A stretch of 32,000 bases of DNA from Crocosphaera subtropica ATCC 51142 (GTDB lineage: Bacteria > Cyanobacteriota > Cyanobacteriia > Cyanobacteriales > Microcystaceae). Below the pieces are notes generated by a model that saw only the letters and a list, made by a program, of their open reading frames with translations, searched no databases and was not told the DNA's origin. The DNA lies in NCBI RefSeq assembly GCF_000017845.1, contig NC_010546.1:3240001-3272000 (forward strand), written 5' to 3'. A program made the translations under genes and the position numbers. Below, piece by piece: positions 16,090 to 32,000 of this stretch; positions within the stretch are counted from its first letter, which is position 1; each line of letters starts with the position of its first letter.

Positions 16090-19000
16090 TTAATCCCATG
16101 TTTCAAATTCTTGCATCCAATGATTAATTAGGGTGCTAATTTGAGTTCGTCTATTTTCAAAATTAGCAGCTATCCAAATAAATGTTAATCCTAATAGTAA
16201 ACCGATAATCCATTTTAACAGAGGATAACTAAAACTAACAATGACTAACTGATAAAAAACAGTGATTAAAAACGTGATCGTTCCATTAAATAAAAAACCA
16301 CGGGTTTTGAACCCTAAACCAATAATAATTAAAATAAATCCTAGCACCCCAGGAATAATTCCTGTTTCTCTGTAAAATAACAAGGAAACCATACCAACAA
16401 TTCCTGTGGCTATCAAACGAAGAGAATGTCTGACTGATTTTCCTTCTTCTCTTTGACAATAGGGTTCAAACACAATAATTGATAAAAGAGATAAACACAA
16501 TAAACTTGAATATAATAATAGGGATAATCGATCAACTGCACTTATATTATTATAAATAGCAACATTAATTAACAGTAAACTAGGATAGAATAAACGGGGT
16601 CTATTGGAGAGTTTGGAGAGAATACCATAACCAATAGAAGCAACCAGTAGAGTAATCGAATTGAAGCTACTAATAACTCCCAATAGAGGTAACGTAAATG
16701 CTAATAGATTCCAGGGTCTTTTTGACCATCCCCATTGTCTCCAAGGAAGAGTATAAATCACAATACTTAATAAAGAAAGGATAGAGCCTATTACATTAGA
16801 CAATAGAACAGAAGGAAAGCTTAAAAACCCATAAATAGTTGTTCCTCCCCCCTCTATAAATCCTAGATAAACCCAAATTTCTCCTTGTCTTTTGTCTAAA
16901 AAATTACGTCCTTCTAAAATAGCATATTGAGTTAAAAATAGTCCAGCACCTAACCCTATTAATTGTTGTGATTGAACAGGATATAATAAAGAGAATCCTA
17001 AACAAATACTACCGAAAATCCAATGTAAATGAGCAACAATTTTTAGCTCTCTGGTGGTTAAATAAAGATAGGAAGATAACCAAGGAGAAGCGAGGCGATA
17101 GCAATACATTATTCCTGTTGCTAATGCTGCCATACTTAAACATTTATCTCCCCAAGGTAAAGGCGAAATCTGATAAAATAAGAGTTCATAAGCAGAATAA
17201 GAAATAATAACAAGTGCTAGATAAATTAGGGGTTTAAACTTTTCTTTTCTGCGTCCAACTCCTATAATAATTAGGGCTAAACCCAGGGAAATTAAGCCAG
17301 TAAAATGATTAAAGAAATTCCACCGTAATGCCGTTCCTAATGCTCCATACAAAAGCGGTAAAATATGTAGACTACTTAAATATTGCGTTTCTCCTGTTCT
17401 TTTTTGCCACCATTCTCCAATGACTTGAAATAAAATACCTAAAACAATATTGATAAAAGCTAATAAGATCAAAGACTGACTCAACTTAGTTGTAATATTA
17501 ATTGTTAATAATTCCAACGTCCATCCTAACGTATAAAACATTAAATTATTAGGCTGTTTTTTAGTTCGATAAAGAATCCCTAGAAACAAAATACAGATCG
17601 CTACAATAACTGTTATAGAAGGATTCATGTAGTCCCAATAAATAGCAACAGAATGTAAAGTTAAAGTTGTTAATATCAAACCACAGATTATCATTCCCCA
17701 AACATCAACGACTTTTCTATAAACCTTAGCTAAGGATTGAGGTTTTTCTTTTAAATAACTCCAAACTAACCAAAGAGTCATTAAGGTGATACTATCGCTT
17801 ACTATCCAGATAGGAATTATGGATAAATCAAAAACTTCTATAACTTTTAAGAGGATAAGAGAACGGCAAAATATGATCATACCAACAGTTATCAATGCTG
17901 TAAAAAAATAAGGTAAAAAATAACTATGAATAAAAAGTAATGTCGTTCCCGTTGTCGAAGTAATAATTCTCGTTGGTAAAGGATTAGGATTTAAAAATTG
18001 TACAATTAAAATAACAATAACACTTGACCATAAAAAGACATTTTGTCTTGGATTTTGCCAACTCCGATAAGCCATACTTATCATAATCAGATTAAGGGTA
18101 ATTAGTAAAATGAGATCATTATTTAAAAGATAATCCGTGGATAATCGAAAAACAGTAAGAAAGATAATGTTGACTGTACATAACGTAATTCCCCATAAAT
18201 CTAATGCTTTTTTATAGTAATCAATAGAATTGCGTTGATAATAGTTAAGAAGATGATAAAGAATCCAAAAGATAGTAGCAGTAACTGATGCTAATAATGA
18301 CCAATATAGCCAAAATTGCTCTCCATACTTCAAACCATTATCTTCTAAAATAACAACAATTAATTCTAAGAAAAATCCAATGGTAATAAACCCTATACTA
18401 ACCTGCTTAAAAATCTGGGTTTGTACTACCATTAAAATGGTAGCAATTCCTAATTCTATCCATCCCCATGATGGTAAGGATAAAGCTGGAAGAGGCACAA
18501 CGGCTAATACTAATATGCTATACCATAATGATAATTTATTTTCTTCAGTCGTGGGTTGCCAACTACGATAAGTAACACTTCCCATTAAAATAACAGATGA
18601 AATTAAAACATTGGTTGTTGAAGTGTAAACTAAAGAAATATCAAACAATCTAATTAAAGTAATTAGAGATAAAATATAGGCATAACCATCAAAAGTTTGA
18701 GCATAAATAAACCCTAACTCTGACGTATTATCACTCAAAACATGGCGAACAAACCATAATAATAGGGTAATAATAACTCCTGATAGTATCCATAAAGAAG
18801 CAGATAAATTTAAAATATATAGATAGAAGAAAATTGAAGTTAATCCTAAACCAACAGTAATAATGACTGAATATAAATGACGTAAATATCGAGTATTGAT
18901 AATCATCAATATAGTGCCAATGACTAATCCAATTAACCGAGTTTCTGGAAAATAAACAGTTAATGCTTGTGTGAGACATATGGCAATAACACTTAATTCA

Positions 19001-21042
19001 CTAGCTAATTTTCTTCTCGGTACATACCAAATTGCGATCGCCGTTAACAAGCAAGGAACTAATAGCCAATTTAACCCCCAAAAAGATGAATTCACAGGCA
19101 ATTGAAACCATAATAGTCCATAGGATATAGTAGCTAACACTAATCCAATATTCCAGGTATTATAATTAATTAATTTGAGCAAAGATTCTTCAGAAAAAGT
19201 GATCAAAGATATTACAATCTCAGCCATCATTAACCCTAGTACAATTAGTGACCAAAGATTGATAGAAAGATCAGGGAAATAATAATTAATAGCAGAAATT
19301 ACTGTGAGAAGTACACCAATATGAGTTAATAAAGCTAATGGTTTTATAAAGAAATGTCGATTATGTTTGAGTTGGTATTTTGTTTCATAAGCTAATGTCA
19401 AGCTAGATAACATTAAATTAACGGTTCTAACTAGGGGATTGATTAAACTAATAGCTGTTAAAATAATTCCAAATAAAAAAGCTAACTGGCTGCTAAAATT
19501 ATATAATTTAACCTGATCTTGATCAATAAAAAAATGTCGTCCTAATACGATAAAAAATAAGAAAGGAAAAAGACCAACACTACTTAAAACAAAAGGATGA
19601 CTATTAGTGTTAGTCAAATCAATAATATTAGTCCATACAGTTTGAAGAATCGGTAAACGAACCATTAACCAATGAACTTGTAAACCGATGAGAAAAATCA
19701 AGATAAAATCACGCCGTGAACCAGAGATTTTAAAATGTTTTCCTAACCAAGTGATTGCCAACAAACTAATAGCGATCGCTTGACTGGGAATCACAAAAAC
19801 AGATAATAACCATCCTAGGGTTAATGTCCCACTCCCTAACCATTTCCAAGGGGTTTTGGGAGGTGATCGCCATCCCATTAACCAACCACATAAACTAATT
19901 GCTAAACCTAATTGAAAAATATTAACTTCAGCAATAAAAATAGCCCTCACTAAAAGAATCATCAAAGCATAAATAATAATCGCCTCAGTCAAACTAAAAG
20001 GCAAAAATCTTTTATTATTTATCTCAGTGTTTTTAGGAGAGATTAATGTAATAATTGTTGTGGCAATCACCCCTACATAAGTAGCAATTAAAGGAATTCC
20101 TGGGAGAGTCCATCCCCAGTGTAAATACGTTAAACCTAAATGATTTAATAACGGCAAAGAATGAGAACTAGATTGAGAGTTATCCTTAAATAACTTAATA
20201 GTTAATATTGTTAAAGATAGACTGCCGATTAACATTCCAATTAACCCTAAAAAAGTATGCCAGAGGGGAAAAGTATCCATGGCCAAGAAATTAATCGGAA
20301 CTAATAATAAAGTAACAATCCGTAATGCTTGGGTTGTTAATCTTAAATTTGCTTGTTTGCCTGTCCACCAACTAGCCACCCCAAACCCTAATGTATATAA
20401 CCAAAGAATGCCATATTGTAGAACCGCAGGAAACGTCTGCCACCAATTTGCTGCGATGACTCCCGAAGAAACCACCACCATAAACACCCCTAATAACAGT
20501 AACCAAATAACACTTAATTCTGCCATTAAGGATTGAATAATTTGGGGAATACTAGGAGTATTTCTCCGTTGATTACCAACCGTTGAAACTTTAGATTTAG
20601 AAGCCGATAAAGAGGGGATTAAAAATTGTTTAGTGGGGGGAACAGTTTGAAGCGGAACAGTCCGAACAGCACAAGTTAACTCTTTCTGTGCAATGTTTTT
20701 AACCTGTTCATGATTTAATAATCCTAATTGTAACCAACGATCTAATCCTTGTAATATACAGGGGTTAGTTGCTTCAATTTTAACTGTTAAATTAAATAGT
20801 GTTTCATCAGAAATACAATCAACCTCTTGTAAAACTTGTAATTGTTTAATTAAATTGCTAATACTTAGAGTCGTTTTAAAATTAACTTGAAACGAATCAT
20901 TACTACTAATAAGTCTAGCAGGAACTCTCTGTTCAGAAATCAAGCCTAAATCTAGCCAATATTGCCACCCTTCTAACAATTCAGAGATAGCTGTTTTTTG
21001 AGTGATTTGAATAGAAATGGAGTGTTCCCTTGGCGATGACAT
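16090..21042 (-). CDS. Giant (1650 aa) polytopic membrane protein of unknown function
   Basis: An uninterrupted 4953-nt ORF in AT-rich DNA with an ATG start. A soluble N-terminus of about 165 aa is followed by almost continuous hydrophobic helices. Internal ~165-aa repeats are described in the findings. Confidence 0.9.
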   Translation of the reverse strand: MSSPREHSISIQITQKTAISELLEGWQYWLDLGLISEQRVPARLISSNDSFQVNFKTTLSISNLIKQLQVLQEVDCISDETLFNLTVKIEATNPCILQGLDRWLQLGLLNHEQVKNIAQKELTCAVRTVPLQTVPPTKQFLIPSLSASKSKVSTVGNQRRNTPSIPQIIQSLMAELSVIWLLLLGVFMVVVSSGVIAANWWQTFPAVLQYGILWLYTLGFGVASWWTGKQANLRLTTQALRIVTLLLVPINFLAMDTFPLWHTFLGLIGMLIGSLSLTILTIKLFKDNSQSSSHSLPLLNHLGLTYLHWGWTLPGIPLIATYVGVIATTIITLISPKNTEINNKRFLPFSLTEAIIIYALMILLVRAIFIAEVNIFQLGLAISLCGWLMGWRSPPKTPWKWLGSGTLTLGWLLSVFVIPSQAIAISLLAITWLGKHFKISGSRRDFILIFLIGLQVHWLMVRLPILQTVWTNIIDLTNTNSHPFVLSSVGLFPFLFFIVLGRHFFIDQDQVKLYNFSSQLAFLFGIILTAISLINPLVRTVNLMLSSLTLAYETKYQLKHNRHFFIKPLALLTHIGVLLTVISAINYYFPDLSINLWSLIVLGLMMAEIVISLITFSEESLLKLINYNTWNIGLVLATISYGLLWFQLPVNSSFWGLNWLLVPCLLTAIAIWYVPRRKLASELSVIAICLTQALTVYFPETRLIGLVIGTILMIINTRYLRHLYSVIITVGLGLTSIFFYLYILNLSASLWILSGVIITLLLWFVRHVLSDNTSELGFIYAQTFDGYAYILSLITLIRLFDISLVYTSTTNVLISSVILMGSVTYRSWQPTTEENKLSLWYSILVLAVVPLPALSLPSWGWIELGIATILMVVQTQIFKQVSIGFITIGFFLELIVVILEDNGLKYGEQFWLYWSLLASVTATIFWILYHLLNYYQRNSIDYYKKALDLWGITLCTVNIIFLTVFRLSTDYLLNNDLILLITLNLIMISMAYRSWQNPRQNVFLWSSVIVILIVQFLNPNPLPTRIITSTTGTTLLFIHSYFLPYFFTALITVGMIIFCRSLILLKVIEVFDLSIIPIWIVSDSITLMTLWLVWSYLKEKPQSLAKVYRKVVDVWGMIICGLILTTLTLHSVAIYWDYMNPSITVIVAICILFLGILYRTKKQPNNLMFYTLGWTLELLTINITTKLSQSLILLAFINIVLGILFQVIGEWWQKRTGETQYLSSLHILPLLYGALGTALRWNFFNHFTGLISLGLALIIIGVGRRKEKFKPLIYLALVIISYSAYELLFYQISPLPWGDKCLSMAALATGIMYCYRLASPWLSSYLYLTTRELKIVAHLHWIFGSICLGFSLLYPVQSQQLIGLGAGLFLTQYAILEGRNFLDKRQGEIWVYLGFIEGGGTTIYGFLSFPSVLLSNVIGSILSLLSIVIYTLPWRQWGWSKRPWNLLAFTLPLLGVISSFNSITLLVASIGYGILSKLSNRPRLFYPSLLLINVAIYNNISAVDRLSLLLYSSLLCLSLLSIIVFEPYCQREEGKSVRHSLRLIATGIVGMVSLLFYRETGIIPGVLGFILIIIGLGFKTRGFLFNGTITFLITVFYQLVIVSFSYPLLKWIIGLLLGLTFIWIAANFENRRTQISTLINHWMQEFETWD

Positions 21043-22636: not shown

Positions 22637-24550
22637 TTAAGAATCTAAATACTCCTTAAATTTCTTTCTTAATTGTTCAATGCTCAAATCTTTGCTTAAA
22701 AACTCCACAAACGCTTGACCAAAGGCCCAAGCATTGTCTTGAATCTTTCCAGACGTATCTAATAATAATGGCCATAACGATAGTAAATCAAACTTTTGAT
22801 GATGATCATCATCTTCAAACAAACAAAACAGATCATAAGCCATTTGCAGTTTACCAATGACAATGGGTAATTGTTCGACGGGAATCTGTTCAGCTAAGGC
22901 ATAAGCTAACCCAGGAGAACCGGTACTTAAGGTAGAAATAAACTGTAATACAGGACTTTTTAATAAAGCAGTTATCCCTTGGGTGGTACTCAGTCTTAAA
23001 GTACAAGTTTCAATAATTTTAGTGGCAGCAACGGATCGCGCTTTTTGTTGTTGTAAAAAACGGGCTAACCTTAATTGTTTCGACGGTTCAATTGATTCTA
23101 ATAACGTATTCGTTAAAGCTTCTACCCCCCAACTATCTCGGTTTGTGGTTACGTCACTGGTAACCAGGGGTAAAACGATGTCGTATTCTTCCCCAAATAC
23201 CTCCATACGGTATGTTGTTGCCTCTCTGATACTTATTTCTTTGGGTAAGGTTCCCTGTTGCCAGTTATAAGGAGGTTGCCACTCTCTAATGGGTCGTAAG
23301 CGATCCACTTGGGTTACGATGACAATGATCGGTAAGTCTGCAATGTCTTCTTTAACCGCCTTAAGAAAGGTCATATCAATGTCTAAGGAGGGATCAAGGG
23401 CAGGGGTAACTAATAGCAATAAATCAGCCTTTGTACAATACTTTAACACCTGTTCTCGGAACTCAGGACGGTTAATTTGTTCATACCCCGGCGTATCCCA
23501 AAGGGTTAAAGAGTCCCCTGTTGGACTGTCCCAGTGATAAGCAGTAAAATCATCGGTACTGGGTAAAATATCAACTTCTGCTTTGTCTGTTTTAAATAAG
23601 GTATTGATCAGGCTACTTTTTCCGGCCCCCGTTCGTCCTGCGAGTAAAATATTAATGGGTTTGGCTTCTATTTCTTCAACTGGTTTGGCTTTTGCAAGGA
23701 TGTCTCTGAGGGTTTCGGTTTTAGCAGTAGAAGGACTTTTTTCTTTGACGGATAAGGAGTCTGAAGGAAGAAGATTTTTGTCGCTGTAAAGGGCGATCGC
23801 TTGTTGGGCCAGGGTTTTTAAAGCGGTTTCTCGGAAGGTTTGCCCTAAATTCACTAATAATTGTTGATTGGCTTGTTTTGTCGATTGTAAGCTAGTTTGT
23901 CTGGCGATCGCTGCAGCCGGGTTGAGTATCCATTGACTCCAGTTCCACACTCGCCAGAGTTTACGGGCATTGGGTTCTAATTTTTGATACACTTCATAGG
24001 CTTGGTATGCTTGGGCGATACTCACTTGAGTTAGGACAGGGGATAATTTTTGCATCCAGCGATCAAGATCGTCGACAGTTCCTCGGATCAGTCCGTATGC
24101 TTGGGGAATATAGATATTGAGTAACGGATATTTGATTTCTGGGTGATAAATTTGGGCGATCGCACTGACTAAATTTTGACACCGTTGCCAAAAAATTGCC
24201 CAGTCTTCCCAAAAGGGTGGATCATTGCGAGTTTCTTGGATAATCTCGCCTAGAATACTCTCTATCTTATTCAAAGTTTCTTTATCCCCAACGGTTGCAG
24301 CCATTTCTTTTTGTTCGTTATCAACTTCTTCGTTAACTTGAGTGATTAAGGTTTCAATTTGTTGTTCTACGGGTTTAGTCCATTTCACCAATAACCAACG
24401 CCAACCCAATAACATTAAGATAAAAATACCCCAAATCCAATTAATTCCCCATTGATGAATTTGTAATCCTGCTGCAATAATAAAAAAACTAACACTAATA
24501 ACTAGGGGACTGGCTAATACGAGCCATTGCCAAGATTTTAATTTAATCAT
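22637..24550 (-). CDS. Membrane-anchored P-loop GTPase (Era/MMR_HSR1-like domain in the middle of the protein)
   Basis: 637 aa. Two N-terminal TM helices, G1 motif LLAGRTGAGKSSLIN, G3 motif LWDTPGY and a G4-like TQVD, followed by an extra C-terminal domain of about 170 aa. Confidence 0.85.
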   Translation of the reverse strand: MIKLKSWQWLVLASPLVISVSFFIIAAGLQIHQWGINWIWGIFILMLLGWRWLLVKWTKPVEQQIETLITQVNEEVDNEQKEMAATVGDKETLNKIESILGEIIQETRNDPPFWEDWAIFWQRCQNLVSAIAQIYHPEIKYPLLNIYIPQAYGLIRGTVDDLDRWMQKLSPVLTQVSIAQAYQAYEVYQKLEPNARKLWRVWNWSQWILNPAAAIARQTSLQSTKQANQQLLVNLGQTFRETALKTLAQQAIALYSDKNLLPSDSLSVKEKSPSTAKTETLRDILAKAKPVEEIEAKPINILLAGRTGAGKSSLINTLFKTDKAEVDILPSTDDFTAYHWDSPTGDSLTLWDTPGYEQINRPEFREQVLKYCTKADLLLLVTPALDPSLDIDMTFLKAVKEDIADLPIIVIVTQVDRLRPIREWQPPYNWQQGTLPKEISIREATTYRMEVFGEEYDIVLPLVTSDVTTNRDSWGVEALTNTLLESIEPSKQLRLARFLQQQKARSVAATKIIETCTLRLSTTQGITALLKSPVLQFISTLSTGSPGLAYALAEQIPVEQLPIVIGKLQMAYDLFCLFEDDDHHQKFDLLSLWPLLLDTSGKIQDNAWAFGQAFVEFLSKDLSIEQLRKKFKEYLDS

Positions 24551-29786: not shown

Positions 29787-30023
29787 CTAGGCTGTTTCAA
29801 TGACTTCTACTTCGTTGTCACGGAAATGAGCGCGAAATCGTTTTTCAAACTTGACTAATATGGGTAGGTTAGCACTAACCGGCCTTCCTCGCCAGTTGGT
29901 GACGATATCGATTATCTCTCCCTCCATTCCTTTGATATCAAATGGCTCTTTCTTATGTTGAGGATGATGATAAACAATAACAGATTCTATAACACGGACG
30001 CGATCGCCAATTTTCATATTCAT
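29787..30023 (-). CDS. ftrV: Ferredoxin-thioredoxin reductase variable subunit
   Basis: 78 aa. IGDRVRVIESVIVYHHPQHK...PVSANLPILVKFEKRFRAHFRDNEVEVI matches FtrV. Confidence 0.9.
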   Translation of the reverse strand: MNMKIGDRVRVIESVIVYHHPQHKKEPFDIKGMEGEIIDIVTNWRGRPVSANLPILVKFEKRFRAHFRDNEVEVIETA

Positions 30024-30208
30024 TCAGTCTCTATGATCCTCCTATTAAGGCTATTATCGGGATGATTTACAACTTTACCATTTTTACTGAAGTAGAAATA
30101 GGATTCAATCAGATTGCTTGGTATTGGTAAGTTAATTAATATAAAGAAAACTTGAACTTTTGTCAATTTTATGGCTACAATAAGAGTTTATAGTTAAATC
30201 TTAAGAGC

Positions 30209-31915
30209 ATGATATTTCGTATCTTAAGAAAACAGTTATCTTATCGACAAGTTGCGGTTATTATTGGCCGATTACTGATTATCGAGTTTGTATTATTGGG
30301 TTTTGGTATATTAGCAATCAGTAAACATTATTATACCTATGAACATCATAGTTTTTCTCAATTGCAAAGTATAGAGCATACCAAAGTTTTTCCGACATTA
30401 CCGTTAGCTTTATCGTATGCCATAACTAATAATCAAACTGCTCAAATTAATGATATTTTGAATGCTGATTATGGTTTATGGAAATTAGTCATAACAGATC
30501 CAGAAGGTAAAAAAGTAATTACTTATTCTCAAAAAAATCTTGAACAAGAAATAGGTTTCATAGACAATAGATTACCAGAAAATCTTAACAGTTATTCTTA
30601 TCACTTACTTATTAATCCTTCTTCACCGAACGCTCAAGATTATTATTTTGGAGACAACCAGAGCCTTAATAAGTTAGATGAATTCATCAATTCCAAAATG
30701 CTACTGGGTCGAGTTTATTATATTGGAAATATTTCCTATAATTTTCAACAAGAATTATTACAGTGGCTAGGAAATCCTTTTGCTAATAATAGTCGTTTTC
30801 CTATTTATAATTTAACAATATTATTATTTATTATTGGCGGATTATTTATTTGGAGTTTTAGTGAGTTTTTCTTAGCGTATCGACTGTTGACCCATAGGGA
30901 AAAAGAACAATTATCCCAAAGACTGAAATTGGAAAAGGAATTAGTCAAACAAGAAATTGAGAAAAGACAAATCGCTGATCAAAATCAAGAAATTTTCAAA
31001 AATAAGCAAATTCAATTACAAAAAGAAATAACGATACTTCAAAATAACTTAAAAGAAAAAATTGCTCAAAATTCACGCTTAATTGAAGAGAGAGAAAAAG
31101 AACAAGAAAAATTAGAGGAATTAGAAAATAGTCAAACTCAAAAAATCAAGAATCTTCAAACTATTATTGAAGAATATGAAAAAGAAATTTTAATTTTAGA
31201 AGTGTGGCAAGATAAATCTCAAGAATTAGAAGAAATAAAACAAGAAAAAAATAACTTATTAGTAGAATTATCAGAATACGAAAACTTAGAGAGAGAAAGT
31301 AAAAAACAAATTAAATCCCTTAGACACAAAATTGAACTCTTGATGAATCAAAAACAAGAAGCTGAACAGAAGATAAATGATTTACAGGAGGTTCAATTAT
31401 CTAATAAAACATCTATCCAAGAAAGGGAAGAAATGATCCAACAAGAGTTTGAAAGACAAATTAATTTAGTCAAGTTAGAATCAGAATATGCGTTTGAAGA
31501 AGCGCAAAATATAGAACAAGAAAAAGAAAAAATACTGCTACAAAATAAGGCAATTCGAGAACAACTTAACTCCGAAATTGAAAAAAATAAATATTTAGAA
31601 TTTGCCTTAGAAAGCTATAAAAAAGAAAAAGATGAGATCACTCAAGAATTGACCATCAATAATAATAGTAATTATCCGTCTATACCTACATCTTATTTAA
31701 CTAATATATCGAGCAGAAAAGCCATTAAAGCCTTTCAGAAATTAGGATTTGAAAAAGATAGACATAATGGAGATCATTTTATCCTAAAGAAAACAGAAAC
31801 TAACACCATTACTGTTCCTATTCCTCATCCTCGACAAGAACTCAATCCTCTCACGTTGAAAAATATTTTAATACAAACAAACACTTGTTTAGAGGATTTT
31901 CTAGATAATTTGTAA
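30209..31915 (+). CDS. Two-TM, coiled-coil protein with a C-terminal HicA (YcfA-like) toxin domain
   Basis: 568 aa. TM1 at aa ~14-37, a ~155-aa extracytoplasmic segment, TM2 at aa ~197-222, and an E/K/Q-rich coiled coil at aa ~225-480. The C-terminal 70 aa, SSRKAIKAFQKLGFEKDRHNGDHFILKKTETNTITVPIPHPRQELNPLTLKNILIQTNTCLEDFL, follow the HicA pattern (..ALEKLGFE..RQKGSH.....G..TTVP.H...L..GTLRSIL.QAG...EEF). Confidence 0.85.
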   Translation: MIFRILRKQLSYRQVAVIIGRLLIIEFVLLGFGILAISKHYYTYEHHSFSQLQSIEHTKVFPTLPLALSYAITNNQTAQINDILNADYGLWKLVITDPEGKKVITYSQKNLEQEIGFIDNRLPENLNSYSYHLLINPSSPNAQDYYFGDNQSLNKLDEFINSKMLLGRVYYIGNISYNFQQELLQWLGNPFANNSRFPIYNLTILLFIIGGLFIWSFSEFFLAYRLLTHREKEQLSQRLKLEKELVKQEIEKRQIADQNQEIFKNKQIQLQKEITILQNNLKEKIAQNSRLIEEREKEQEKLEELENSQTQKIKNLQTIIEEYEKEILILEVWQDKSQELEEIKQEKNNLLVELSEYENLERESKKQIKSLRHKIELLMNQKQEAEQKINDLQEVQLSNKTSIQEREEMIQQEFERQINLVKLESEYAFEEAQNIEQEKEKILLQNKAIREQLNSEIEKNKYLEFALESYKKEKDEITQELTINNNSNYPSIPTSYLTNISSRKAIKAFQKLGFEKDRHNGDHFILKKTETNTITVPIPHPRQELNPLTLKNILIQTNTCLEDFLDNL

Positions 31916-31932
31916 GGTTATTAGACAATGAT

Positions 31933-32000
31933 TTAACGACCTAGAGTTAATTCTTCTTTTTTGCCTAGAATACCTTGGGGTCGCCAAACCATTAAAATCA
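31933..32000 (-). CDS. 3' end of an unidentified minus-strand gene (partial)
   Basis: The reverse complement reads ...ILMVWRPQGILGKKEELTLGR* with the stop codon at 31933-31935. Only 22 codons are visible. Confidence 0.3.
   Translation of the reverse strand, partial: ILMVWRPQGILGKKEELTLGR

Follow-up and report, generated by a model that had tools for sequence, protein, structure and literature searches.

HicA toxins and the toxins of the RelE superfamily are normally held in check by a cognate antitoxin. The gene described here, at nucleotides 30209 to 31915 of a 32,000-nucleotide stretch of the Crocosphaera subtropica ATCC 51142 genome (NC_010546.1, positions 3,240,001 to 3,272,000; the whole stretch is called the window below), encodes a protein of 568 residues that ends in a HicA domain and has no HicB at its side. 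In common with canonical HicA (PF07927) it has a hidden Markov model (HMM) match above the gathering score and the histidine of the G-x-H motif, and a low-confidence model gives it the same order of secondary structure elements; it differs in being about eight times longer, in being apparently monocistronic with no HicB beside the gene, and in presenting the toxin as the predicted output of a membrane protein. A type II HicAB module was considered and rejected, because no hicB is adjacent or fused and 568 residues take the place of a small free-standing toxin.

The closest described proteins are those of Class 14, 'SMC-HicA', in the survey of Gerdes 2024 (mBio 15:e03293-23, PMC10865869), which are monocistronic, have a long coiled coil and a HicA domain at the C-terminus, and lack HicB. 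They also have a further well-predicted globular domain, and NERD-bearing relatives are mentioned; their N-terminal part is read as an SMC domain with a Wadjet- or Lamassu-like role (PMC10865869). The words 'membrane', 'transmembrane' and 'periplasm' are absent from the main text of that paper, and 'sensor' occurs once, about CapRel. The Crocosphaera protein shares with Class 14 the long coiled coil, the canonical C-terminal HicA and the lack of HicB, but differs from the class as published in having no SMC head or hinge, in its ectodomain module with two transmembrane (TM) helices, and in belonging to a family with a swappable output. Since members of that family draw SMC labels through their coiled coils, Class 14 is probably the same family with its coiled coil read as SMC; the Class 14 example WP_223300692.1 was not among the cluster members that we retrieved. 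The first-pass annotation of this DNA knew of no described system with such an architecture, and this must be qualified, as coiled-coil proteins that lack HicB and end in HicA have been published before. Three things appear to be new in the literature searched, namely that the two-TM ectodomain module is an unnamed family spanning the phylum, that it is combined with about a dozen outputs including true kinases, and that it is reused on CHAT-STAND proteins; no paper found there describes the module, and Kaur et al. 2020 (PMC7159879) make no mention of HicA, NERD or nSTAND1.

We propose that the protein is a one-component transmembrane sensor-effector, a reading to which we give an even chance of being correct. 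A cue in the periplasm or envelope would be detected by an alpha/beta domain that lies outside the cytoplasm between two TM helices, and a long, presumably parallel dimeric coiled coil would carry the resulting change into the cytoplasm. There the coiled coil would control a HicA endoribonuclease which, once switched on, would cleave mRNA and arrest translation, while tethering and an intramolecular or intradimer restraint would replace the absent HicB antitoxin. The role would most likely be envelope-triggered growth arrest or abortive infection, with stress regulation as a possible one. We infer dimerisation, signal-dependent gating and RNase activity, as well as the kind of cue and the role in the cell. 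The anatomy itself comprises the following parts, numbered on the window:

30209..31915 (+), the whole gene, with an ATG start and 568 residues plus stop: two-TM sensor module, coiled coil and HicA domain
30209..30247 (+), N-terminal stub, residues 1-13, predicted cytoplasmic, with four Lys or Arg and zero acidic residues
30248..30319 (+), TM helix 1, residues ~14-37: Kyte-Doolittle maximum 2.44; AlphaFold2 helix 12-60 with a predicted local distance difference test score (pLDDT) >90
30320..30808 (+), predicted extracytoplasmic alpha/beta domain, residues ~38-200, core of the unnamed N-terminal module (N-module), from the N-module profile and AlphaFold2
30809..30880 (+), TM helix 2, residues ~201-224, from the Kyte-Doolittle plot, with conserved Y200, G211, W215 and E219
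30881..31642 (+), coiled-coil stalk, predicted cytoplasmic, residues 225-478, from composition, heptad periodicity and the AlphaFold2 helix
31643..31708 (+), linker, residues 479-500, in which a conserved 'SIPTSYLTNIS' leads into HicA helix 1
31709..31912 (+), HicA RNase domain (like a double-stranded-RNA-binding domain), residues 501-568, with the Pfam match at residues 503-557, nucleotides 31715-31879
31769..31777 (+), G-x-H motif, G521-D522-H523, containing the presumed catalytic His, from the alignment of fused HicA tails

The HicA domain at the C-terminus, from which the first-pass annotation set out, is amply confirmed. PF07927 (HicA_toxin) matches residues 503-557 at E 3.2e-14; this match scores 53.2 bits and the isolated 70-residue tail 58.5 bits, where the gathering score is 27. 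An alignment of 16 fused HicA tails, drawn from several cyanobacterial orders, shows no variation at G521 or H523, which also settles an earlier concern that the catalytic histidine might vary among relatives. A single-sequence phmmer search of the PDB with the tail gave zero matches and a profile of the 16 tails was required; this retrieves, from the solved structures, HicA 1whz at 2.7e-11, followed by 4c26, 6g26 and 9svk. The histidine column is aligned on the GGH of 1whz and on the Ala of a GSA triplet in 4c26 and 6g26; chain 4c26 is the H24A mutant of Burkholderia pseudomallei HicA, and the column is on that account taken as the catalytic position. The tail also contains the motif 'vP.H...GTLk.Il', as does canonical HicA, and AlphaFold2 gives it an alpha-beta-beta-beta-alpha order (helix 502-511, strands 514-517, 524-528 and 535-538, helix 547-557), at a low pLDDT of 44-70. 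By HMM, motif and profile alike, the C-terminal 68 residues are a bona fide member of the HicA family, and their catalytic motif is intact and strongly constrained.

The remainder of the protein also agrees with its first description. Two TM helices were claimed around an external segment, and hydropathy supports both, with 19-residue Kyte-Doolittle means of 2.44 and 2.13; the stub before TM1 is rich in Lys and Arg and free of acidic residues and a further Arg/Lys-rich stretch follows TM2, so that the positive-inside rule predicts a topology with both termini in the cytoplasm and residues 38-200, a loop of about 163 residues, outside. A coiled coil of about 250 residues rich in Glu, Lys and Gln had likewise been proposed, and residues 225-478 prove to be 47% E/K/Q with zero Pro and zero Gly. 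The spacing of hydrophobic positions in this stretch peaks at exactly 3.5 residues, with a power of 2.49 where 500 shuffles reach 1.49 at most, and in the full-length AlphaFold2 model residues 198-477 form one unbroken helix. That model, made from a shallow alignment of 17 sequences, has a pLDDT of 56 and a predicted TM-score (pTM) of 0.19, and secondary structure alone is taken from it. If modelled as a straight helix the stalk would span roughly 37 nm.

The N-module is where the protein connects to a much larger family. For an exhaustive hmmsearch, residues 1-238 of the Crocosphaera clade were made into a profile. It brought up 196 representatives at E<=1e-3, of which 141 reach E<=1e-10, with E values down to 1e-47; most of them are 450-750 residues long with the module at the N-terminus. 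A scan of one genome per species, made with two peptide patterns and a 10-sequence alignment of main-family members and with its best 80 loci listed, yielded 111 confirmed matches, and every one that is taxonomically labelled belongs to the Cyanobacteriota. The lineages are Nostocales, Oscillatoriales, Leptolyngbya-like cyanobacteria, Chroococcales, Gloeomargarita, Pseudanabaena and the non-photosynthetic Obscuribacterales/Melainabacteria; no relatives were found in 2.9 million viral contigs. The layout, which the Crocosphaera protein fits, consists of TM1, an ectodomain with P-x-x-L-S, T-D and R-V-Y-Y motifs, TM2 with a conserved Trp and Glu, and then a coiled coil. Invariant positions of the ectodomain are P65, L68, S69, T96, P137 and Y170, the RVYY motif lying at 168-171, and the motifs of the main-family ectodomain are highly conserved between orders. 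A pair of cysteines (T[DNS]C-x5-10-C) between strands 1 and 2 is present in 96 of 115 N-modules, and is consistent with a periplasmic disulfide and so with an oxidising, extracytoplasmic location.

AlphaFold2 models the N-module well from a 48-sequence alignment (pLDDT 84.4, pTM 0.67), with long TM1 and TM2 helices, four strands and about eight helices. A Cache- or PDC-like fold, which had been put forward for checking, is not established by this model: a Foldseek search of the PDB gave nothing significant, with a best E of 0.14, and the uncropped TM helices may have hurt the search. The weak matches include DctB (3by9), CitA (2j80), TlpQ and GAF/PAS proteins at E 0.6-2.4 and probability <=0.2, and FtsX ectodomains are likewise among them. 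The sequence profile finds zero solved relatives in the PDB, and the module is not represented by any model in Pfam, NCBIfam or PADLOC. Judged by its profile matches, the N-module is a real, unnamed, widespread and independently mobile family.

What follows the coiled coil differs from member to member. Output classes were obtained by clustering the last 130 residues of the representatives and scanning example members:

NERD nuclease tail, 29 representatives
DUF2325-like tail, 20 representatives
HATPase_c tail, 17 representatives, with the H-box 'NI.HD..KAPLL' plus N, G1 and G2 boxes
'IGYCGKHL' tail, 11 representatives, matching the C-termini of PADLOC NsnC and HEC-07
HicA tail, 10 representatives outside Crocosphaera
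HicA-like 'GKHYK' tail, 5 representatives
CARF7-type tail, 4 representatives, matching the C-terminal part of the PADLOC CARF7 model at 2e-36, which we take to be the RelE-like domain of Cami1
Gp49/HigB tail, 3 representatives, 64 bits
YoeB tail, one clear case, P0102, 92.8 bits
Card1-like endonuclease tail, 2 representatives, weak at 24.2 bits and below the Pfam cut-off of 26.4
DUF2293 tail, 2 representatives
Schlafen AlbA_2 tail, 1 representative

Three further RelE/YoeB-like tails (P0045, P0106 and P0167) are weak or were judged by eye. N-modules that are 45-55% identical to one another bear different tails, from which it follows that the output has been exchanged repeatedly. With their H, N, G1 and G2 boxes, the 17 HATPase_c representatives are, on sequence grounds, real sensor histidine kinases. 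In four other representatives (P0103, P0121, P0125 and P0128, 546-990 residues) the order is reversed; TM1 and the ectodomain form the C-terminal end, which stops shortly past the RVYY motif without a TM2, and the two that were scanned, P0103 and P0121, have CHAT (caspase-like) and nSTAND1 NTPase domains. This arrangement would put the ectodomain in the C-terminal sensor position of STAND NTPases of the cell-death type. The occurrence of one module on histidine kinases and STAND NTPases, together with its exchangeable effectors, supports the reading in which a sensor controls an effector. The original suggestion of a signal-gated, antitoxin-free RNase thus gains substantial comparative support, while gating, RNase activity and the signal itself are still predictions from architecture.

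The HicA-type members come from Arthrospira/Limnospira platensis, Microcoleus, Laspinema, Sodalinema, Phormidium, Geitlerinema and Lyngbya, and are annotated just as 'HicA family toxin' or 'hypothetical'. One of them, the 670-residue Microcoleus-type P0195, is labelled 'Chromosome segregation ATPases' in IMG, and the NCBI label of members is 'type II toxin-antitoxin system HicA family toxin'; both labels are misleading for a two-TM coiled-coil protein without ATPase head or antitoxin. In a metagenome-assembled Crocosphaera sp. genome there is also a main-family paralogue with the 'IGYCGKHL' (NsnC/HEC-07-like) tail (L054:5935-7839), so that one genus can hold members with different outputs.

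The proposed mechanism has partial analogues in several systems. Sensor histidine kinases and chemoreceptors have the same topology, with a cytoplasmic N-terminus, an ectodomain, a second TM helix and a cytoplasmic helical transmitter. In contrast to the sensor kinases, the Crocosphaera protein has no DHp H-box/HATPase_c core, its output is a predicted RNase, and a stalk of about 250 residues stands in place of a short signalling helix; moreover, its ectodomain is not demonstrably a Cache, PDC or four-helix bundle domain. The type III CRISPR effectors Cami1 (CARF plus RelE-like) and Card1 (CARF plus REase) follow a common logic, in that a sensor is fused to a toxin-type nuclease with no antitoxin, but their sensor is cytoplasmic and binds cyclic oligoadenylates, whereas here it would be an extracytoplasmic membrane sensor with no CRISPR association. 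CapRel(SJ46), a fused toxin-antitoxin sensor, is likewise a single polypeptide in which restraint of the toxin and detection of the trigger both fall to the part that is not the toxin; it is, however, cytoplasmic and senses a phage capsid protein via a pseudo-ZFD, while the protein described here has no antitoxin-like cytoplasmic domain, only the coiled coil.

Extended to the family, the proposal would be that the Cyanobacteriota, including Melainabacteria, hold an unnamed class of one-component transmembrane receptors in which one ectodomain, by way of a long coiled coil, directly switches toxin-type nucleases (HicA, the RelE superfamily, NERD, Card1-like, Schlafen) or kinase cores and is reused on CHAT-STAND NTPases. 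Toxins of the toxin-antitoxin kind would then be governed from outside the cell without an antitoxin, the Crocosphaera member being a core-genome kill or arrest switch from envelope to translation. We offer this tentatively, and suspect that in this full form it may well prove wrong. If it is true, toxin catalytic domains have repeatedly been wired to a membrane receptor and placed under the control of an extracytoplasmic signal, and toxin-antitoxin biology, two-component signalling and cell-death systems of the STAND type are connected by a shared sensor. The anatomy also corrects the published SMC-fusion reading of what is probably this family. The system has tractable features in an ectodomain with invariant motifs, natural histidine-kinase chimeras that might report on the ligand, and a small predicted RNase output with a single catalytic His. 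Crocosphaera is a major marine nitrogen fixer, and a conserved switch from envelope to translation, if real, would bear on phage resistance, on programmed cell death and on diel physiology.

Several observations weigh against a sensor-effector. The gene is surrounded by housekeeping genes and its position is syntenic throughout Crocosphaera, which is not how most defence genes behave. The Crocosphaera ectodomain is without the Cys pair and many of the main-family motifs, has <=33% identity to the rest, and could with this divergence have changed its function. As it has no significant relative among known ligand-binding domains, the term 'sensor' is drawn from domain context. The coil, at 254 residues, is far longer than typical signalling helices and may be mainly a spacer or scaffold. 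Lastly, PADLOC-DB v2 returns zero families for this protein at E<=0.01, and its paralogues match PADLOC solely via their effector tails (CARF7, NsnC, HEC-07) or coiled coils.

Selection and genomic setting bear on which alternatives are credible. We found 16 homologues that are 60-80% identical and stem from independent genomes and metagenomes, belonging to Crocosphaera or Cyanothece wherever the source names an organism; 14 of the 16 are 548-587 residues long. The ratio of nonsynonymous to synonymous substitution rates (dN/dS, Nei-Gojobori, against three orthologues) is 0.03-0.07 in the HicA domain, the most constrained region, 0.09-0.31 in the stalk and 0.32-0.59 in the ectodomain, the fastest-evolving region. 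These values mark the effector as clearly functional and show the ectodomain to be the part most open to change. The following features adjoin the gene:

29787..30023 (-), ftrV, ferredoxin-thioredoxin reductase variable chain, the divergent upstream neighbour (PF02941, 122.8 bits)
30152..30181 (+), promoter-like site, TTGAAC, an 18-nucleotide spacer and TACAAT, from a pattern scan, matching the consensus
31933..32000 (-), 3' end of a convergent BPD_transp_2 ABC permease gene that runs past the window end, from the gene call plus Pfam on the identical loci L001 and L002

The permease gene lies 18 nucleotides past the stop of the fusion gene and neither neighbour is a HicB, all of which bears out the earlier account of a divergent ftrV, a convergent downstream gene and no HicB partner. 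The divergent pairing with ftrV is kept at all four Crocosphaera loci examined, L083, L084 and L086/L087 among them, while the outer flanking genes vary. The fusion gene may be co-regulated with the ferredoxin-thioredoxin system. Across the four orthologous loci, intergenic conservation is confined to about 85 bp before the ATG, with the promoter-like site inside, and this conserved block suggests that the fusion gene has its own promoter and is monocistronic. No HicB-like open reading frame was found in the 32-kb window or inside the protein with a profile of four cyanobacterial HicB sequences, a search of limited sensitivity (best E 0.32). There is none beside the gene at the orthologous Crocosphaera loci, and none neighbouring nine HicA-type loci of other genera, where the flanking reading frames were judged by eye. 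With neighbours named by eye from their N-terminal sequences, the Microcoleus HicA-type gene follows rplM-rpsI-rpmE-prfA and the one in Phormidium precedes eno-mutL.

This setting is what best recommends the main rival, a membrane-tethered housekeeping RNase or RNA-binding scaffold, in which the two-TM region would be an anchor and oligomeriser, the coil a spacer, and HicA a source of constitutive low-level cleavage or RNA binding that shapes the turnover or localisation of mRNA near the membrane. RNase Y provides the model, since it too combines a membrane anchor, a coiled-coil region and an RNA-cleaving domain. Unlike our protein, it is a housekeeping enzyme with a single TM helix and no ectodomain; its catalytic part consists of KH and HD domains, and the two proteins are unrelated in sequence. 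A tethered enzyme would account for behaviour typical of a core genome, namely a single syntenic orthologue beside ftrV in housekeeping surroundings at every Crocosphaera locus examined, and would agree with the Microcoleus and Phormidium contexts, with strong purifying selection on both HicA and stalk, and with zero defence-island context, PADLOC matches or viral-contig relatives. Yet a plain anchor needs no conserved, folded ectodomain of about 160 residues with invariant motifs, the module also stands at the N-terminus of true histidine kinases and at the C-terminus of STAND NTPases, and closely related N-modules with DNA-nuclease-type NERD, mRNA interferases and kinases fit an interchangeable effector better than a scaffold dedicated to RNA decay. 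Unrestrained HicA is, besides, normally toxic, as HicAB systems demonstrate. Explaining the synteny but neither the conserved ectodomain nor the output swapping, the tethered RNase is in our judgement unlikely, if worth keeping in view.

A narrower form of the sensor-effector reading is an anti-phage or anti-invader sensor acting by abortive infection, in which the ectodomain would detect attachment, DNA injection or envelope damage and unleash HicA, or NERD or RelE in the paralogues. The set of effectors is that of toxin-antitoxin, CRISPR-ancillary and abortive infection systems, the ectodomain is the part that evolves fastest, and in Nostocales the NERD-type gene is followed by one for a PhnD-like/staphylococcal-nuclease lipoprotein. 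The ectodomain occurs, furthermore, on CHAT-nSTAND1 proteins, a kind of STAND NTPase that has been classed among putative conflict systems (PMC10907252); a defence role has been proposed for Class 14 itself (PMC10865869). Set against these points, PADLOC has no family for the protein, the gene lies outside defence islands at a position conserved across the genus, and dN/dS of the ectodomain stays below 1. The conservation of ectodomain motifs across orders, moreover, suggests a conserved and possibly endogenous ligand over a variable phage protein. Specialisation for defence against phage or other invaders is an attractive reading but, in our judgement, an unlikely one.

The Class 14 interpretation, in which an SMC-like protein surveys the chromosome or foreign DNA in the manner of Wadjet or Lamassu and acts through HicA (PMC10865869), would draw on sub-threshold SMC_prok matches over the coiled coil, on the IMG label carried by one member and on weak matches of the PADLOC JetC and LmuB models to the coiled coils of relatives. 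Against it, the NCBIfam SMC_prok_A match is confined to residues 230-484 and, at 9.5 bits, falls short of the cut-off of 729.4; Pfam and NCBIfam find no SMC_N, AAA or Walker motifs and hence zero ATPase head; there is no SMC_hinge match and helix 198-477 is uninterrupted and free of Gly and Pro, leaving no hinge; and the N-terminus is a two-TM membrane module. The absence of head and hinge refutes an SMC identity for this protein, and we hold surveillance of this kind to be very improbable. Barely credible at all is an artefact or decaying gene, whether a membrane protein joined to an orphan hicA by misassembly or frameshift, or a HicA relic that survives as a fold only. The size is unusual for a HicA protein and the composition AT-rich, but conservation refutes both the assembly-fusion and the pseudogene reading: there are 14 homologues of 548-587 residues from independent genomes and metagenomes, ftrV synteny holds at four loci, the architecture recurs in Arthrospira/Limnospira, Microcoleus, Laspinema, Sodalinema, Geitlerinema and Lyngbya, and the HicA domain combines a dN/dS of 0.03-0.07 with an invariant catalytic His.

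The composition of the gene had been remarked on at the outset. It is indeed AT-rich, with 28.1% GC against 36.9% for the window and 20.6% at third codon positions (GC3), and the low GC is real, yet partly a consequence of a protein composition rich in Lys, Glu, Asn and Ile. The absence of HIP1 sites, also remarked on, is uninformative; with 22 sites in the window, about 1.2 are expected per 1.7 kb, and we reject HIP1 depletion as a sign of foreign origin.

Elsewhere in the family, a number of gene arrangements deserve mention. In Nostocales the NERD-type member is followed on the same strand, at -43 to +41 nucleotides, by a lipoprotein gene (as at L008:7627-9348 (+)) whose product joins a PhnD-like phosphonate/phosphate-binding domain (PF12974, 79.5 bits) to a staphylococcal nuclease (PF00565, 75.8 bits). 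The arrangement is found also in L003, L005-L015, L017, L021, L023 and L071, usually with a class B acid phosphatase gene next. A gene for a binding protein lies near the histidine-kinase-type loci L044, L068 and L069, and at the Lyngbya HicA-type locus L034 a secreted staphylococcal nuclease is encoded 37 nucleotides downstream. These neighbours suggest a periplasmic nuclease or binding-protein partner of the ectodomain in some lineages; the 32-kb window contains no such binding-protein or nuclease genes, and the association is not transferable to the Crocosphaera gene.

The members from Obscuribacterales/Melainabacteria are short (374-412 residues), consisting of N-module and coiled coil with zero recognisable effector. 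About 145 nucleotides downstream of one of them lies a gene for a SWIM zinc-finger SNF2-family helicase of about 1085 residues (L077:7237-10494 (+); SNF2-rel_dom, 242.7 bits), and the same arrangement occurs in L064, L070, L072-L074 and L079-L082, so that in these bacteria the effector may be encoded separately. In Lyngbya CCAP 1446/10 and Microcoleus N9_A2 (L043:5935-6642 and L039:125-820) the family reading frame stops at 101-131 residues while the tblastn match runs on, and NCBI has separate fragments of 79 and of 147/321 residues for the interrupted Lyngbya/Microcoleus genes; some strains may carry a pseudogene here, or the sequences may contain frameshift errors.

Within the window itself, the sole Rfam match at the gathering threshold is one tRNA gene (823-895, - strand). 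The largest open reading frame, at 16090-21042 (-), encodes an uncharacterised protein of 1650 residues with no Pfam family at E<=1e-5. A gene at 22637-24550 (-) encodes a bacterial dynamin-like GTPase of 637 residues, with MMR_HSR1, Dynamin_N and IIGP matches, and is also present in the equivalent region of Crocosphaera chwakensis (L086/L087).

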